From Anaerolineales bacterium (GTDB lineage: Bacteria; Chloroflexota; Anaerolineae; Anaerolineales; Villigracilaceae): 34,711 nucleotides of DNA. Shown here one piece after another: positions 4,812 through 16,031 of this stretch. The position numbers and the translations under genes are program-made. Numbering within the stretch: the first letter of the stretch is position 1; each line of letters begins with the position of its first letter. A model generated the notes under the pieces. That model worked only from the letters and a program-made list of their open reading frames with translations, was not told where the DNA came from and made no database searches. The DNA lies in contig DASTJG010000112.1 of NCBI GenBank assembly GCA_035716785.1, positions 1-34,711 of the forward strand. The letters are read 5' to 3'.

Positions 4812-5434
4812 TGTCTTCTGAAGAACGCAAGAAAATTTTACAGATGGTGCAGGATGGCAAGATCTCTGCCGAGCAGGCCGCGAGCCTGATGCGCGCCCTC
4901 GAAGAGAACGCGGCTGAGGCGGAACTCGAAGTGGTTGAAATGGGGACCGGTGCCGGCGGGGAAAGAAGCGAAGCCCCCGAGTTCGAAGAGGTCAAAGCCC
5001 GCGCCCGTAATTTTGCAATGATCCCCTTATGGGTGGGCGTCTTCCTCACCGTGCTCAGCGCCTGGGGCGTTTATTCGATCCAGCAAAATGCAGGCATGAA
5101 TTTTTGGTTCTTTTGTTTATTCGTTCCTTTGTTGCTGGGTATTTTATTGATCGCGCTCGGCGCGAGCGGTCAGAGTTCAAAGTGGTTGTATGTCAACGTG
5201 GATCGGCGCAATGCACAGGATTGGCCGCGAAACATTACCCTTGGGTTTCCGCTGCCTCTGGGACTGGCGGCCTGGTTCCTGCGAAATTTTGGTCATAACA
5301 TACGCGGGATGAAACATACCAGCGTGGATGAGATTATTCAAATACTGGATGCAACCGGAAAATCTGGTGCGCCTCTCATCATCAATGCAAGTGACAATGA
5401 AGATGGCGAACACGTGCAAGTCTACATCGGTTAA
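4811..5434 (+). CDS. Membrane protein with N-terminal SHOCT-like (YvlB-type) module
   Basis: N-terminal EERKKILQMVQDGKISAEQAASLMRALE, two TM helices, C-terminal DGEHVQVYIG. TAATG overlap with the upstream gene. Confidence 0.75.
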   Translation: MSSEERKKILQMVQDGKISAEQAASLMRALEENAAEAELEVVEMGTGAGGERSEAPEFEEVKARARNFAMIPLWVGVFLTVLSAWGVYSIQQNAGMNFWFFCLFVPLLLGILLIALGASGQSSKWLYVNVDRRNAQDWPRNITLGFPLPLGLAAWFLRNFGHNIRGMKHTSVDEIIQILDATGKSGAPLIINASDNEDGEHVQVYIG

Positions 5435-11196: not shown

Positions 11197-11460
11197 TTAC
11201 AAAGAACCACACCCACAGCCGTCATCCGTCACTGCGACGGGCAATGGGAAGGCAGTATTCAGCTCCGAGGCGAACTTGTCCATTTTGGACGCCGCGCCTT
11301 TGCGGACCCGTTTCCCGACTTCGATCGCTTCGGCGATCTCCCGCTCGTCGGCTCCGCTTTTGCGCGCCATCGTTACCGCGGATTGCAGGCAGGGCTGACA
11401 ATTTGCGCTGACCGCGGCGCCCACCGCGATCAAAGCCTGTATTTGACTTTTTAATTCCAT
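11197..11460 (-). CDS. Carboxymuconolactone decarboxylase/AhpD-like protein with CxxC and C-terminal GCGCG
   Basis: ALIAVGAAVSANCQPCL...ARKSGA..EIAEAIEVG. AAGGAG SD. Confidence 0.85.
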   Translation of the reverse strand: MELKSQIQALIAVGAAVSANCQPCLQSAVTMARKSGADEREIAEAIEVGKRVRKGAASKMDKFASELNTAFPLPVAVTDDGCGCGSL

Positions 11461-12219: not shown

Positions 12220-13032
12220 TTAGGCAGGCTTATATGCTGTGATCTTTGCGCTGTAGACTGCTTTGTAAATATCGTCGCGGGCGATGGTTTTTAGTTCGAC
12301 TACGTCTCCCATGTCGGCAATTGCAGAGTCAACTGTTTCCTTGTCGAAGAAGACAGGGGTGATGGAAATATTCGTAAAGCCGATCGCTTCCATCATGGCG
12401 ATGTAATCCTTTGCTTCGACCGCGCCCGCCACACAGCCTGCCCAGGCGCTCAGACTTTTCTTGATCGGCTCCGGTAACGGACCATCGGTCACAATATCAG
12501 AGACGGCGAATTTAGCGCCGGGTTTTAGTACGCGGAACGCTTCGGTGAAAACCTTGGATTTATCCGGGGCAAGGTTGATGACGCAGTTTGAGATAATAAC
12601 ATCGACACTGTTGGAATCGACCGGCAGATCTTCGAGATAACCCTGGCGAAATTCCACGTTCTGGATGTTCAAGCGCTTCGCACTGGACCGGGCGCGCTCG
12701 ATCATTTCGGGAGTCATGTCCACGCCGATGACGCGGCCCGTCTCGCCGACTTTTTTCGCGGCGAAGAAGCAGTCGAGTCCCGCGCCCGAGCCGAGGTCGA
12801 GGACAGTCTGTCCAGGTTGCAACGAGGCGAGCGTGATCGGGTCGCCGCACCCGTAGCTGACGCTGGTTTCACCATCGGGGAGGGTGGCAAGCAGATCTGC
12901 CGGGTAGAGGTTGCTGTCGGTGCTGCAGCAATCAGAGGTGGAGTCCGGTCCGCAGCACGAAGCGTTGCTCTTGATCCGTTCGGCATAGTGCTTTTGAACC
13001 GTCTCATGAATGGGGGTTGGGGTTTGTGTCAT
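12220..13032 (-). CDS. arsM: Arsenite S-adenosylmethionine methyltransferase
   Basis: N-terminal CC..CC, SYGCGDP, VLDLGSGAGLD, ISNCVINL, WAGCVAGA. Confidence 0.93.
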   Translation of the reverse strand: MTQTPTPIHETVQKHYAERIKSNASCCGPDSTSDCCSTDSNLYPADLLATLPDGETSVSYGCGDPITLASLQPGQTVLDLGSGAGLDCFFAAKKVGETGRVIGVDMTPEMIERARSSAKRLNIQNVEFRQGYLEDLPVDSNSVDVIISNCVINLAPDKSKVFTEAFRVLKPGAKFAVSDIVTDGPLPEPIKKSLSAWAGCVAGAVEAKDYIAMMEAIGFTNISITPVFFDKETVDSAIADMGDVVELKTIARDDIYKAVYSAKITAYKPA

Positions 13033-13061: not shown

Positions 13062-14084
13062 TCAAATTACGAATAAGTTGTAAATGAAACCGAGCACGAT
13101 GGAACCAAGCCAGAGCGTGCCAATTACGATGCCAATGACCCGCCAGCGGGCAATCGTGAACATGCCGCCCAGTGCACCGATCGATGTCCCCGCGCCTGTG
13201 ATCAGAAACGCGAGCGCCGCGCCCTGGCTCATCCCGCTTTCGAGCATGGCACGGACCAGAGGTAAAGAGGCTTCCGAGTTGATGTAGAAGGGCAAACCGA
13301 GAGTCGCGGCGAGTGGAATGCTGTAGGCGTGACCAGCGCCAAACAGACTGGTGATCCAGGCAGTCGGGATTAGCCCGTTGAGCACATATCCGACGAATGT
13401 GAATCCGAAGAAAAGTAGCAGCAGACGTTTGCTGATATCGTACATCTCCTGAACGAATGCACGCAAGGTGACCTTGGGTTTGGCGGATGCAGGTTGAGCG
13501 ACAACGGGCGCTTCTGTGCGGTTCGATGAGCAGCCGCACTGCCCTGCTTCAGCCGCAGGTTGTGCGACCGTCGGCAATTCAATGGGAGCGGGTCCGCCCA
13601 TGATGCCCAGTGACATGGGCGGTTGAGAATCAGCCATGCGGGCCTGGTTCACCAGCCAGCCGCGTGCTTCGGCAAAACTGGCAATGGCGCCGCCTGCCAG
13701 ACCGAGGAGGATGGAAGAAATAAAGAATGCGATGGCGAACGGCCAGCCAAAGATCCCCGCGCTGTAGAAGAGACCTTCGGGGGAAGTAAGAGGCGAGGAG
13801 ACGATGAAGGCAACGATCGGCGCCCAGGGAATCGTGGATGCCATCATCCCCAAAACGATTGCGGTCGTACCACAGGAGCAGAACGGCGTCCCGACGGCGA
13901 TCCCTGTGGCCATGAGCACGCTGTTTTTCGTGTTGCGGTGCAGGAAACGCGCGATTGTCTCCTGGTCCATATAGAATTTGAGCGCCACACTGACAACGAT
14001 ACTGATCAAAAGCAGGTACCAGTTGTGCGCGAAGGTCCCAATGACTTTTGTAAATGCGTCTACGAGAAGAGGTGTGATTTCCAT
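13062..14084 (-). CDS. arsP: ArsP/DUF318-family permease
   Basis: TPFCSCG motif, SSPL, two hydrophobic halves joined by a CGC-containing loop, adjacent to arsM. Confidence 0.82.
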   Translation of the reverse strand: MEITPLLVDAFTKVIGTFAHNWYLLLISIVVSVALKFYMDQETIARFLHRNTKNSVLMATGIAVGTPFCSCGTTAIVLGMMASTIPWAPIVAFIVSSPLTSPEGLFYSAGIFGWPFAIAFFISSILLGLAGGAIASFAEARGWLVNQARMADSQPPMSLGIMGGPAPIELPTVAQPAAEAGQCGCSSNRTEAPVVAQPASAKPKVTLRAFVQEMYDISKRLLLLFFGFTFVGYVLNGLIPTAWITSLFGAGHAYSIPLAATLGLPFYINSEASLPLVRAMLESGMSQGAALAFLITGAGTSIGALGGMFTIARWRVIGIVIGTLWLGSIVLGFIYNLFVI

Positions 14085-14124: not shown

Positions 14125-14145
14125 ATTATATAGAAGTTCGTCTAT
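14125..14145 (-). promoter_or_regulatory. ArsR-type operator overlapping a TATAAT -10 element upstream of arsP
   Basis: Minus strand ATAGACGAACTTCTAT-ATAAT, the same arrangement as at the arsR promoter. No good -35 seen. Confidence 0.75.
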
Positions 14146-14180
14146 GTATTCGCTTAAAAAAATTCGTACCGATAAGTTCG

Positions 14181-14205
14181 CTCTGCAGCGCTAAGCGCCA
14201 CAGAG
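14181..14205 (-). terminator. Hairpin just after the Cys-rich micropeptide (3' stabiliser or weak terminator)
   Basis: Minus strand CTCTGTGGCGC-tta-GCGCTGCAGAG pairs fully with two G:U pairs only on the minus strand. No adjacent U tract. Confidence 0.5.
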
Positions 14206-14213
14206 GTCTTTCC

Positions 14214-14291
14214 TTAGCAGCAGCCACCGCCGCCGCAACTGCATTCGCCTTCCCCGCAACCGCAGTTATTGAGAACATTCAGTTCATTCAT
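14214..14291 (-). CDS. 25-aa Cys/Gly-rich micropeptide MNELNVLNNCGCGEGECSCGGGGCC (metallothionein-like; not in the ORF track)
   Basis: Full-length SD AAAGGAGGTGA 5 nt before ATG. Six Cys as CxC, CxC and CC. Stop is TAA. Lies between hgcB and arsP. Confidence 0.75.
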   Translation of the reverse strand: MNELNVLNNCGCGEGECSCGGGGCC

Positions 14292-14336
14292 GACATTCAC
14301 CTCCTTTCCTGATTTGATCTCCGGTAGCAATAAAAA

Positions 14337-14609
14337 TCATCCGCAGCTGCAGGAAGCTTCCTTTTGGCCGCGTAGTGCAGCGTTGATCATCGCCGCCGCA
14401 CAGCCGACTCCGCTTTCCACGCGAATGGCGCTGGTCGGGCAATTCAACTGACAGGCTCCGCACTCCATGCAGGCCTGCGCATTGACAAGGTGAGCCAACC
14501 TGCCCTGCATCTCAAATGTTCCGTGTGGACAGACATCCGCGCAGACGCCACAGCCGATGCAGGCGGATGGGTCATATTGAAGCGTGTTGGTTTGATAAGC
14601 ATTGAACAT
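14337..14609 (-). CDS. hgcB: Mercury methylation 2[4Fe-4S] ferredoxin HgcB
   Basis: CIGCGVCADVCP, CMECGACQLNCP, GVGCA, C-terminal CSCG. Starts 11 nt after hgcA. Confidence 0.95.
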   Translation of the reverse strand: MFNAYQTNTLQYDPSACIGCGVCADVCPHGTFEMQGRLAHLVNAQACMECGACQLNCPTSAIRVESGVGCAAAMINAALRGQKEASCSCG

Positions 14610-14620
14610 GGGAACTCCGA

Positions 14621-15589
14621 TCAGCGTACAAAGATGAGTGCAATGTTGAGAAGAACGCCGGCGCCGAACATCCAGGCCATGGCGGGAATGTACCGGGCAA
14701 TCTCACGTCGCACACCACTGCGCGAAGTGAACGTGGTCGAGCCGGTAAAGTTCAACGTCAGATAGGCCGTGATGGGCGGGAGCAACAGAGCATACATTAA
14801 TGCCCAGGCGCTTCGCAGCCATAATTCCGAGTCGGGTAGTTTGAGAAACGCGGAAATTGCAAATGGAATGGCGATGATGCCCCCCAGGATGAATCCCTTC
14901 GTGCTAAAGTCATGAGTGGGGATCCATGGCAGAAGGATAGGGAAGAGAACCACTCCCGCCAGGATGGCTGCAACCGGGCCGTATGCGCCGATCACCGTGA
15001 GTAACAAAAGCAACAGAAGAACGGCGACCAATTCAATGGGGATCAAGGCAATACGATCTCTCAGGGTAAAGCGGACGCGCCGCATTGCGGGAGTGGCTTT
15101 GCGTGTTTTCAAATACTCGGGGAGATCTTCTGCGCGCACCGGTCCATACTCGACCTTGAAGTGAGCGCGCTGTTTGACTTCGTGCGCGGCAACGCCGGGC
15201 GCTCCCAGCTGTGGCAGAATCAAGACCCGATGATTGACAACCTCGTGCAAGCGTGTCGCTTCGATGCGTCTGACCAGTTCATCCGTTCCGAACGTCCCTT
15301 TTCCCGCCGCGCACCAGACATTGACGCCTTGTGTGTCGAGCACAAGGATGTAGCTGTCAATGCCTTTCATTGAAGAACGCAGCGCGTCGAAGCTAAGGGT
15401 GTAATTGGCTGTGACAAGAACAGGTGAGTCGGGTGTGGGGCTTCCGAGCGAATAGAGTCCCGGTTTGACGCGGTGTTCCATGCGCCTGACTGACCAGCGT
15501 GCGAGGATATGATCCCAGATATTGGCAAAGGTCAATTTGCTCGTGGTTGGTCTGGTCGCCGGTAGTGCGTTGGTATCTGTTTCTGCCAT
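14621..15589 (-). CDS. hgcA: Mercury methylation corrinoid protein HgcA
   Basis: Cap-helix NVWCAAGKGTF, TANYTLSFD, PQLGAPG, YGPVRA, C-terminal TM domain with NFTGSTTFTS. ATG 15589 follows AGAGG. Confidence 0.97.
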   Translation of the reverse strand: MAETDTNALPATRPTTSKLTFANIWDHILARWSVRRMEHRVKPGLYSLGSPTPDSPVLVTANYTLSFDALRSSMKGIDSYILVLDTQGVNVWCAAGKGTFGTDELVRRIEATRLHEVVNHRVLILPQLGAPGVAAHEVKQRAHFKVEYGPVRAEDLPEYLKTRKATPAMRRVRFTLRDRIALIPIELVAVLLLLLLLTVIGAYGPVAAILAGVVLFPILLPWIPTHDFSTKGFILGGIIAIPFAISAFLKLPDSELWLRSAWALMYALLLPPITAYLTLNFTGSTTFTSRSGVRREIARYIPAMAWMFGAGVLLNIALIFVR

Positions 15590-15607
15590 TGTGCCTCTAT
15601 TTATCAA

Positions 15608-15623
15608 ATAGATATCCGTCTAT
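15608..15623. promoter_or_regulatory. ArsR-type operator directly upstream of hgcA
   Basis: ATAGA-tatccg-TCTAT, 18 nt before the hgcA ATG. Confidence 0.75.
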
Positions 15624-15638
15624 ATATTCGGATAAAAT

Positions 15639-15670
15639 GAGTGGGATTCGCTTAAAGCAGAATCCCACTC
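15639..15670 (-). terminator. Hairpin between arsR and hgcA (attenuator or weak terminator)
   Basis: GAGTGGGATTC...GAATCCCACTC followed by ATTTTAT on the minus strand. Confidence 0.6.
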
Positions 15671-15672
15671 GA

Positions 15673-15984
15673 TTAGTTTTCCATACTTTTCTTGACGACT
15701 TCGGTTGTCTCTGTCTCGGGCGCGAACTTGATCATTAACTGTCCACAGCAGACCGCGAGATGTTCCTGATTCAGTTCATAGAAAGTTTGTTTGCCTTCTT
15801 CACGAACATTCACAAGATCGGCCTCACGCAAGATCGCCAGGTGGTGAGAGACCGTGGGTTGAGAGACATTCATCTTCTCGACGATCTCATTGACCGACAG
15901 CCAGTTACAACAGCACGCGCTCATGATCTTCTGGCGTGTCTCATCGGCGATCGCTTTGGCAAAGATGACAGGATTTGTTTTCAT
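15673..15984 (-). CDS. arsR: ArsR/SmtB-family metalloregulator
   Basis: KAIADETRQKI, SQPTVSHHLAILREADLV. Cys clusters CCC and C-terminal CCG. Confidence 0.93.
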   Translation of the reverse strand: MKTNPVIFAKAIADETRQKIMSACCCNWLSVNEIVEKMNVSQPTVSHHLAILREADLVNVREEGKQTFYELNQEHLAVCCGQLMIKFAPETETTEVVKKSMEN

Positions 15985-16031
15985 AGACGTTTATCTATTT
16001 GAGATTATATCGAAGTTTGTCTATTTGTCAA
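15983..16031 (-). promoter_or_regulatory. arsR promoter with two operators
   Basis: TTGACA-16 nt-TATAAT. ATAGACAAACTTCGAT (16009-16024) fills the spacer and ATAGATAAACGTCTAT (15983-15998) overlaps the start codon. Confidence 0.85.

Follow-up and report, generated by a model that had tools for sequence, protein, structure and literature searches.

A conserved cysteine-rich micropeptide gene behind hgcAB belongs to the arsenic operon and may work like an ArsR-controlled metallothionein

What is a short, cysteine-rich open reading frame (ORF) doing directly behind hgcB in an Anaerolineales bacterium, where an initial annotation saw a third component of HgcAB? We addressed this question in a window, by which we mean the whole 34,711-nucleotide stretch of DNA that was analysed. 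Its minus strand carries, in this order, a promoter, arsR, hgcA, hgcB, the peptide ORF, the gene for an ArsP_1 permease, arsM, an ECF sigma factor gene and a small gene of the CMD family:

15983..16031, minus strand: sigma-70-type promoter, 12 of 12 consensus (16031-16004), with two operator copies (16009-16024 and 15983-15998)
15673..15984, minus strand: ArsR/SmtB-family repressor with CCC and CC motifs (NF033788, above cut-off)
15639..15670, minus strand: terminator-like inverted repeat past the arsR stop, read directly from the sequence
15608..15623, no strand: operator-like palindrome ahead of hgcA; in relatives the equivalent copy abuts the peptide Shine-Dalgarno (SD) sequence
14621..15589, minus strand: hgcA, taken from its ATG (the ORF finder start is a TTG at 15607; NF040863, above cut-off)
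14337..14609, minus strand: hgcB, product ending CSCG (NF040864, above cut-off)
14297..14307, minus strand: SD AAAGGAGGTGA, 5 nt ahead of the peptide ATG, with AAAGGA invariant in 14 aligned loci
14214..14291, minus strand: 25-codon micropeptide ORF rich in Cys, Gly and acidic residues, six Cys, stop included in the coordinates (sequence, conservation, synonymous excess)
14181..14205, minus strand: 11-bp hairpin, 8 nt past the peptide stop (fold scores, pairing conservation in relatives)
14130..14145, no strand: operator-like palindrome ATAGAC-N4-TTCTAT over a TATAAT, ahead of arsP, conserved in relatives
13062..14084, minus strand: ArsP_1-family permease (PF03773)
12220..13032, minus strand: arsenite methyltransferase ArsM (NF008823, above cut-off)

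The peptide, MNELNVLNNCGCGEGECSCGGGGCC*, is encoded on the minus strand from 14291 to 14214, and the plus strand reads differently; the initial annotation had described a 25-residue Cys-rich ORF at 14214..14291 correctly, leaving its strand unstated. Its further observations, that the ORF lies 45 nt past the hgcB stop, that all six Cys fall within the last 16 residues and that HgcB ends in CSCG, were also borne out by the sequence, and the 45-nt gap holds no terminator. The SD had been called the most complete in the window: it is indeed strong, with a 10-nt anti-SD match, but shares the rank of longest with one at 5432. The hairpin was rightly tied to the minus strand, its 11 pairs giving a z of -3.39 there (14205-14181) against -1.66 on the plus strand. 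No U-run stands directly behind it and it is absent from the terminator scan list; its likely role is to protect the 3' end of the mRNA or to terminate weakly. Longer peptide starts (TTG at 14330, GTG inside the SD) were ruled out, since only the ATG is conserved, as was a selenocysteine reading, TGA occurring in 2 of 42 copies and there at the stop position.

Is this ORF a gene at all? A DNA search of 61 genomes, 36 of them from the same genus, revealed matches to the region in 17 of the 36 same-genus genomes; the part with SD and ORF was matched in 15, hgcB in none of these 15, and the ORF is intact in 14. Fourteen of the same-genus positions are directly behind arsR and one is behind arsM. 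A profile search gave matches in 17 of 300 family genomes and 13 further intact copies, and an insensitive phylum-wide profile search gave matches in 4 of 351 genomes; at one profile match (L115, genome G636) our script found no SD-led ORF. The 42 distinct Chloroflexota copies are 21-28 codons long, hold 5-8 Cys each, consist of 26% Cys, 22% Gly, 17% Asp plus Glu, about 1% aromatic residues and 0.3% His, and stop with TAA (33), TAG (7) or TGA (2). Among them pS is 0.65 and pN 0.21 (pairwise and uncorrected, the copies being non-independent kin), and identity at the three codon positions is 0.85, 0.89 and 0.65, third positions varying most. In 14 aligned loci, 96.8% of the hairpin cells are paired, and in 4 of the 11 pairs both partners vary. 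SD, start, Cys pattern, stop and hairpin thus recur in relatives with mostly synonymous changes, so that the check for conservation in related loci suggested by the initial annotation came out positive for ORF, SD, Cys pattern and synonymous variation alike; since kin are non-independent, counts of loci overstate. Judged from sequence comparison, the ORF is a genuine gene for a Cys-rich micropeptide, conserved and unannotated. In RNA libraries X7, X8 and X9, contigs from relatives span the ORF region; level and strand are not readable from them and DNA may be present, so they are no proof of expression, and the runs examined hold 0.05-0.20 of the words.

The gene is dispensable, because one same-genus copy is frameshifted (L036, around 1518-1600) and two ars operons of the genus (L048 and L049, both 1440-1535) run from arsR through the operator to arsM without the peptide module. 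In L036 the arsP behind the peptide is split too, and the frameshift represents either an assembly error or decay; the L048/L049 arrangement looks as if the module had been lost or gained between operator repeats.

The usual layout in relatives is arsR, operator, SD, peptide, hairpin, operator and arsP/arsM. In the present genome hgcAB sits between the operator and the peptide SD, which abut in relatives, and because of this position and the terminator-free gap behind hgcB, the peptide is likely co-transcribed with hgcAB here, as a passenger. The palindrome ATAGAC-N4-GTCTAT is present in four copies in the window with at most one mismatch (promoter spacer, arsR start, before hgcA and before arsP), and the 5.3-Mb genome has three matches to its strict form, all of them at the peptide locus; from this pattern we infer that the four are candidate ArsR operators. 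The copy directly before hgcA, one of the set at 14130-16024, is a candidate ArsR operator for hgcAB, and an exact-pattern palindrome also lies near hgcAB in many of 80 metagenomic hgcB loci. In an ArsM tree (FastTree) the present genome nests among hgc-free relatives, and its ArsP is closest to that of an hgc-free relative, so the peptide-arsP-arsM part looks resident in the genome. The arsR gene may have arrived together with hgcAB: a quick ArsR tree (102 columns, no clade test) places the ArsR of the window on the hgc-linked side. At the far end of the operon, 11197-11460 (minus strand) encodes an 87-residue CMD/AhpD-like protein with a Cys-rich tail, weakly resembling the AhpD part of ArsM fusions and the GSU3128 family. 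Such a gene recurs behind the sigma gene in hgcAB loci, and the ECF sigma gene closing the window operon recurs beside hgcAB/arsM in several loci.

Similar peptides were also found beyond this clade. A pattern scan of the GTDB collection returned 56 loci, a partial sample, the pattern being blind to four-Gly forms such as the window's own; 15 of the 56 were chance matches and two, ending in CGGGGC, were dropped, which left 39 SD-led, in-frame peptides ending in CGGGCC. Sources outside Chloroflexota are records titled Trueperaceae, Gemmatimonadota, Actinomycetota, Thermoanaerobaculia and Fibrobacteria, plus two Oscillospiraceae, and we take the non-Chloroflexota CGGGCC peptides to represent five further phyla. 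An ArsR-family gene neighbours the peptide at 28 of the 39 loci, arsM/arsP at 2, a metal-type MerR gene at 3 and an ECF sigma gene at 2, no regulator being found at 4; as background, 0.7% of random 5.1-kb windows of the present genome (G000) contain an ArsR match. Five loci (L055, L062, L063, L088 and L097) are two-gene arsR-peptide pairs, and in four actinobacterial ones (L075, L078, L083 and L101) arsR is divergent, three of these four with a similar palindrome just ahead of the SD. ArsC-like, ArsN1-like and MIP channel neighbours outside Chloroflexota all fell below cut-offs. The N-terminus is not conserved across phyla, and cross-phylum homology of the CGGGCC peptides cannot be proved, these being 17-28 low-complexity residues selected by their own ending. 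In an Actinomycetota sample the form proved rare (1 of 401 genomes, the centre genome itself), and a class-wide pattern hitting 202 of 401 genomes was rejected as noise from out-of-frame Leu runs plus TGG.

Several of these loci have settings of their own. At L061 (2124-2578), L064 and L087 (both about 2050-2593) similar peptides overlap the 3' end of metal-type MerR genes rather than following arsR, and in Thermoanaerobaculia (L070, 2512-3115; L093, 2515-3118) the peptide lies directly ahead of a SigZ-like ECF sigma gene. At L104 (2801-3721) the place that arsR takes in relatives, just ahead of the operator-like palindrome of the peptide, is occupied by an IS1595-type transposase. The two Oscillospiraceae (L051 and L058, both 2504-2572) share a conserved, SD-led Cys peptide of 23 residues, with no metal genes found nearby, which is probably another small-protein family.

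Database searches returned no Pfam family at E<=1 for the 43 of 54 peptide members scanned, no NCBIfam match for 17 members, no PDB match for the peptide and, in Rfam, two sub-threshold matches, both away from it. Ten exact peptides were absent from a set of 15 billion proteins; a profile search of a protein collection recovered two members, both unnamed, and the openly accessible literature yielded no description of the peptide. By composition it has the traits of the metallothionein class, being small, gene-encoded and very Cys-rich with CxC and CC motifs (21-28 residues, 26% Cys, about 1% aromatic), and it is found beside an ArsR or MerR gene with operator-like palindromes, which may place it under a metal(loid)-sensing regulator. 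Membership in the BmtA/SmtA family is not seen: there is no profile match, and the peptide is not a protein of 50-70 residues with His ligands.

We therefore turn from what the gene is to what its product might do. We consider it moderately likely that the peptide is an ArsR-controlled, micro-metallothionein-like thiol sink, inducible and acting ahead of ArsM and ArsP, with As(III) or MAs(III), as the neighbouring genes suggest, the likely ligand; that it binds metal(loid)s at all is plausible. We prefer an inducible sink because what regularly accompanies the peptide is a metal(loid) sensor, because Cys makes up a quarter of the peptide residues, spaced by Gly and acidic ones, and because the arrangement would follow the smtB-smtA logic (PMC12193353, in the part covered). 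ArsR, predicted to sense As(III) or MAs(III), would bind the palindromes and switch the peptide gene on; the strong SD and the 3' hairpin would yield many peptide copies per mRNA; and the 5-8 Cys on a flexible Gly/acid backbone would bind about two three-coordinate As(III), or Cd, Zn, Cu or Hg. The cytoplasm would in this way be buffered up to the point of methylation by ArsM and export by ArsP. The estimate of two rests on analogy: ArsR holds As(III) via three Cys, according to the part of 10.1101/2022.10.17.512643 covered, and six Cys would therefore hold about two As(III). Against a sink speak the three loci beside MerR-type regulators, the two ahead of an ECF sigma gene and the four where no metal regulator was found, together with the lack of His and of a metallothionein profile match.

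The initial annotation had instead read the peptide as a dedicated third component that delivers Hg(II) to HgcAB or takes up methylmercury, and the locus itself invites this idea: the ORF follows hgcB so closely and without a terminator, the same junction recurs in L124, L125 and one contig of run X1, and the peptide is also joined with hgcAB in L084, L092 and L131. Moreover, neither where the Hg(II) comes from nor which thiol frees methylmercury is established (PMC7305189, as far as covered). However, hgcA was found in none of the 29 genomes matching the peptide ORF (the ORF was confirmed as intact in 27; 16 are clean and at least 90% complete), and across 401 genomes of the order the same hgcA profile scored above its cut-off in 5, so the search is able to detect the gene; the other true hgcAB loci of the order, four of four, lack such an ORF behind hgcB. 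The small-ORF scan downstream of hgcB that the initial annotation had proposed likewise went against it: among 80 metagenomic hgcB relatives (63-90% identity), 67 had at least 300 nt downstream, and 3 of these 67 (L124, L125 and L131) carry the peptide ORF, 64 being without it; a looser scan of the same loci that did not require an SD added no further ORFs. An ars gene is present in 34 of the 67 loci, 31 of them without the peptide. The idea that the peptide supplies the CC missing from HgcB finds no support either. Among 49 loci whose HgcB has no CC in its last 14 residues, 46 lack the peptide and 3 have it; and either C-terminal Cys of ND132 HgcB could be mutated singly with activity kept (PMC7305189, in the part covered), so that one such Cys suffices, and the CSCG tail, with its two, needs no supplement. 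Between hgcB and the peptide SD, L084 and L131 have a hairpin and an operator, neither of which stands there in the window, L124 or L125, and the window peptide shows no visible difference from the copies that hgc-free genomes carry. The peptide follows the arsenic operon, not hgcAB, and the Hgc link is incidental; a dedicated HgcAB component is accordingly very unlikely. A narrower version, which we regard as doubtful, supposes that in a single Anaerolineae clade (the present genome, L124 and L125) a gene-encoded arsenic micro-metallothionein became part of the hgcAB transcript and there brings Hg(II) to HgcB or takes methylmercury from it; if so, arsenic exposure would induce hgcAB and supply its thiol shuttle. 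Two side observations may be added: within the order, 37 of 401 genomes carry open frames of 414-602 residues with an HgcA-like part below the HgcA cut-off (L006-L030), and a YedF-like sulfur/selenium transfer protein, also below cut-off, is encoded near the arsR-hgcAB-peptide locus L084 (890-1246).

The delivery to ArsM that was also suggested at the outset is a more serious, if still unlikely, alternative, in which the peptide is a chaperone that supplies ArsM with As(III) or ArsP with MAs(III), or adjusts ArsR by withdrawing arsenic from it or donating arsenic to it. HgcB and MerA hand off metal through a terminal CC borne on a flexible tail (PMC7305189, in the part covered), and arsM or arsP lies behind or ahead of the peptide in most Anaerolineae loci, for which such delivery keeps some standing; it is not general, since many loci consist of regulator and peptide only, with no arsM or arsP, while the N-terminus is unconserved across phyla and arsR-arsM operons exist without the peptide (L048, L049). 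Could the ORF act in cis, as a Cys-sensing leader that attenuates arsP/arsM? Such attenuators exist among mycobacterial polycysteine short ORFs (10.1101/834739, in the part covered), and a covarying hairpin stands 6-19 nt behind the Cys-rich ORF, upstream of arsP/arsM, in many loci. We nevertheless hold this to be improbable, only slightly less so than a dedicated HgcAB component: an attenuator should always precede its regulated gene, but at 28 of 61 loci the 500 nt downstream contain none of seven query genes (at L100, one of the 28, an ArsR escaped the query), and seven lie behind arsM/arsP at the operon tail; the gene downstream comes with an operator and a -10 box of its own, its SD about 90 nt past the conserved, local hairpin; and the ORF is SD-led rather than leaderless, its Cys spaced as CxC and CC rather than in one run. 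A RiPP precursor would explain a short, Cys-rich product with a semi-conserved N-terminal stretch in Anaerolineae, yet no radical SAM, DUF692, YcaO or similar maturase was found among 30 window proteins and 93 flanking ORFs, and we give this origin almost no weight. A chance ORF or untranslated element, to which the L036 frameshift might point, is just as hard to credit in view of the synonymous excess, the in-frame length changes, the interchangeable stops and the invariant SD and ATG.

What would an ArsR-controlled thiol sink mean for arsenic and mercury biology? Operons of the ars type are described in terms of sensing, reduction, methylation and efflux, and to our knowledge a dedicated gene-encoded As(III) sink is not one of their standard parts; titles and abstract openings in the openly accessible literature likewise revealed none. 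At 25 residues the peptide would be cheap to synthesise and could yield a compact arsenic or mercury binder. Our data also put forward a specific candidate sequence for the operator through which ArsR would control hgcAB in Chloroflexota. Through the likely co-transcription with hgcAB, an effect of the peptide on mercury methylation is possible in one small clade, where we would predict arsenic to turn on mercury methylation together with a strong thiol that competes for, or carries, Hg(II), a prediction relevant to the influence of arsenic on methylmercury formation in soils and sediments.

How does the peptide compare with known systems? The arsenic metallochaperone ArsD is also an ars-operon product that binds As(III) through vicinal Cys; it is a folded protein of about 120 residues that serves ArsA, whereas the peptide has no ArsD match and no arsA was found among the window proteins scanned. 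MymT, the mycobacterial Cu(I) metallothionein, is about twice the size of the peptide, and its context is copper, whereas that of the peptide is ArsR and arsenic; the two have no sequence match. They are alike in being small and Cys-rich, MymT being a cytoplasmic sequestering protein (PMC11672702, in the part covered). The mycobacterial attenuators are likewise short, Cys-rich and unannotated ORFs ahead of other genes (10.1101/834739, as far as covered); they are leaderless, whereas the peptide gene is SD-led, often last or alone in its unit, and linked to a repressor. That arsR, arsM and other ars genes lie beside hgcAB has already been described (PMC7438021; 10.1101/2022.10.17.512643), and the portions of these two accounts that were covered mention no micropeptide or operator sequence, the words "operator" and "palindrom" having no occurrences in the latter. 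The peptide gene described here is conserved, unannotated, 25 codons long, Cys-packed and part of the arsenic operon. Set against SmtA, it is shorter (21-28 against 56 residues), lacks His and a profile match, and belongs to arsenic operons, whereas SmtA binds Zn. The divergent smtB-smtA layout is one that we take L075, L078, L083 and L101 to match. As in SmtB-SmtA of Synechococcus and in BxmR-BmtA, a small Cys-rich product with CxC and CC motifs goes with an ArsR/SmtB-family repressor (PMC12193353, in the part covered). By this analogy, the peptide would work like an ArsR-controlled metallothionein, while being neither a BmtA/SmtA member nor an Hgc component.
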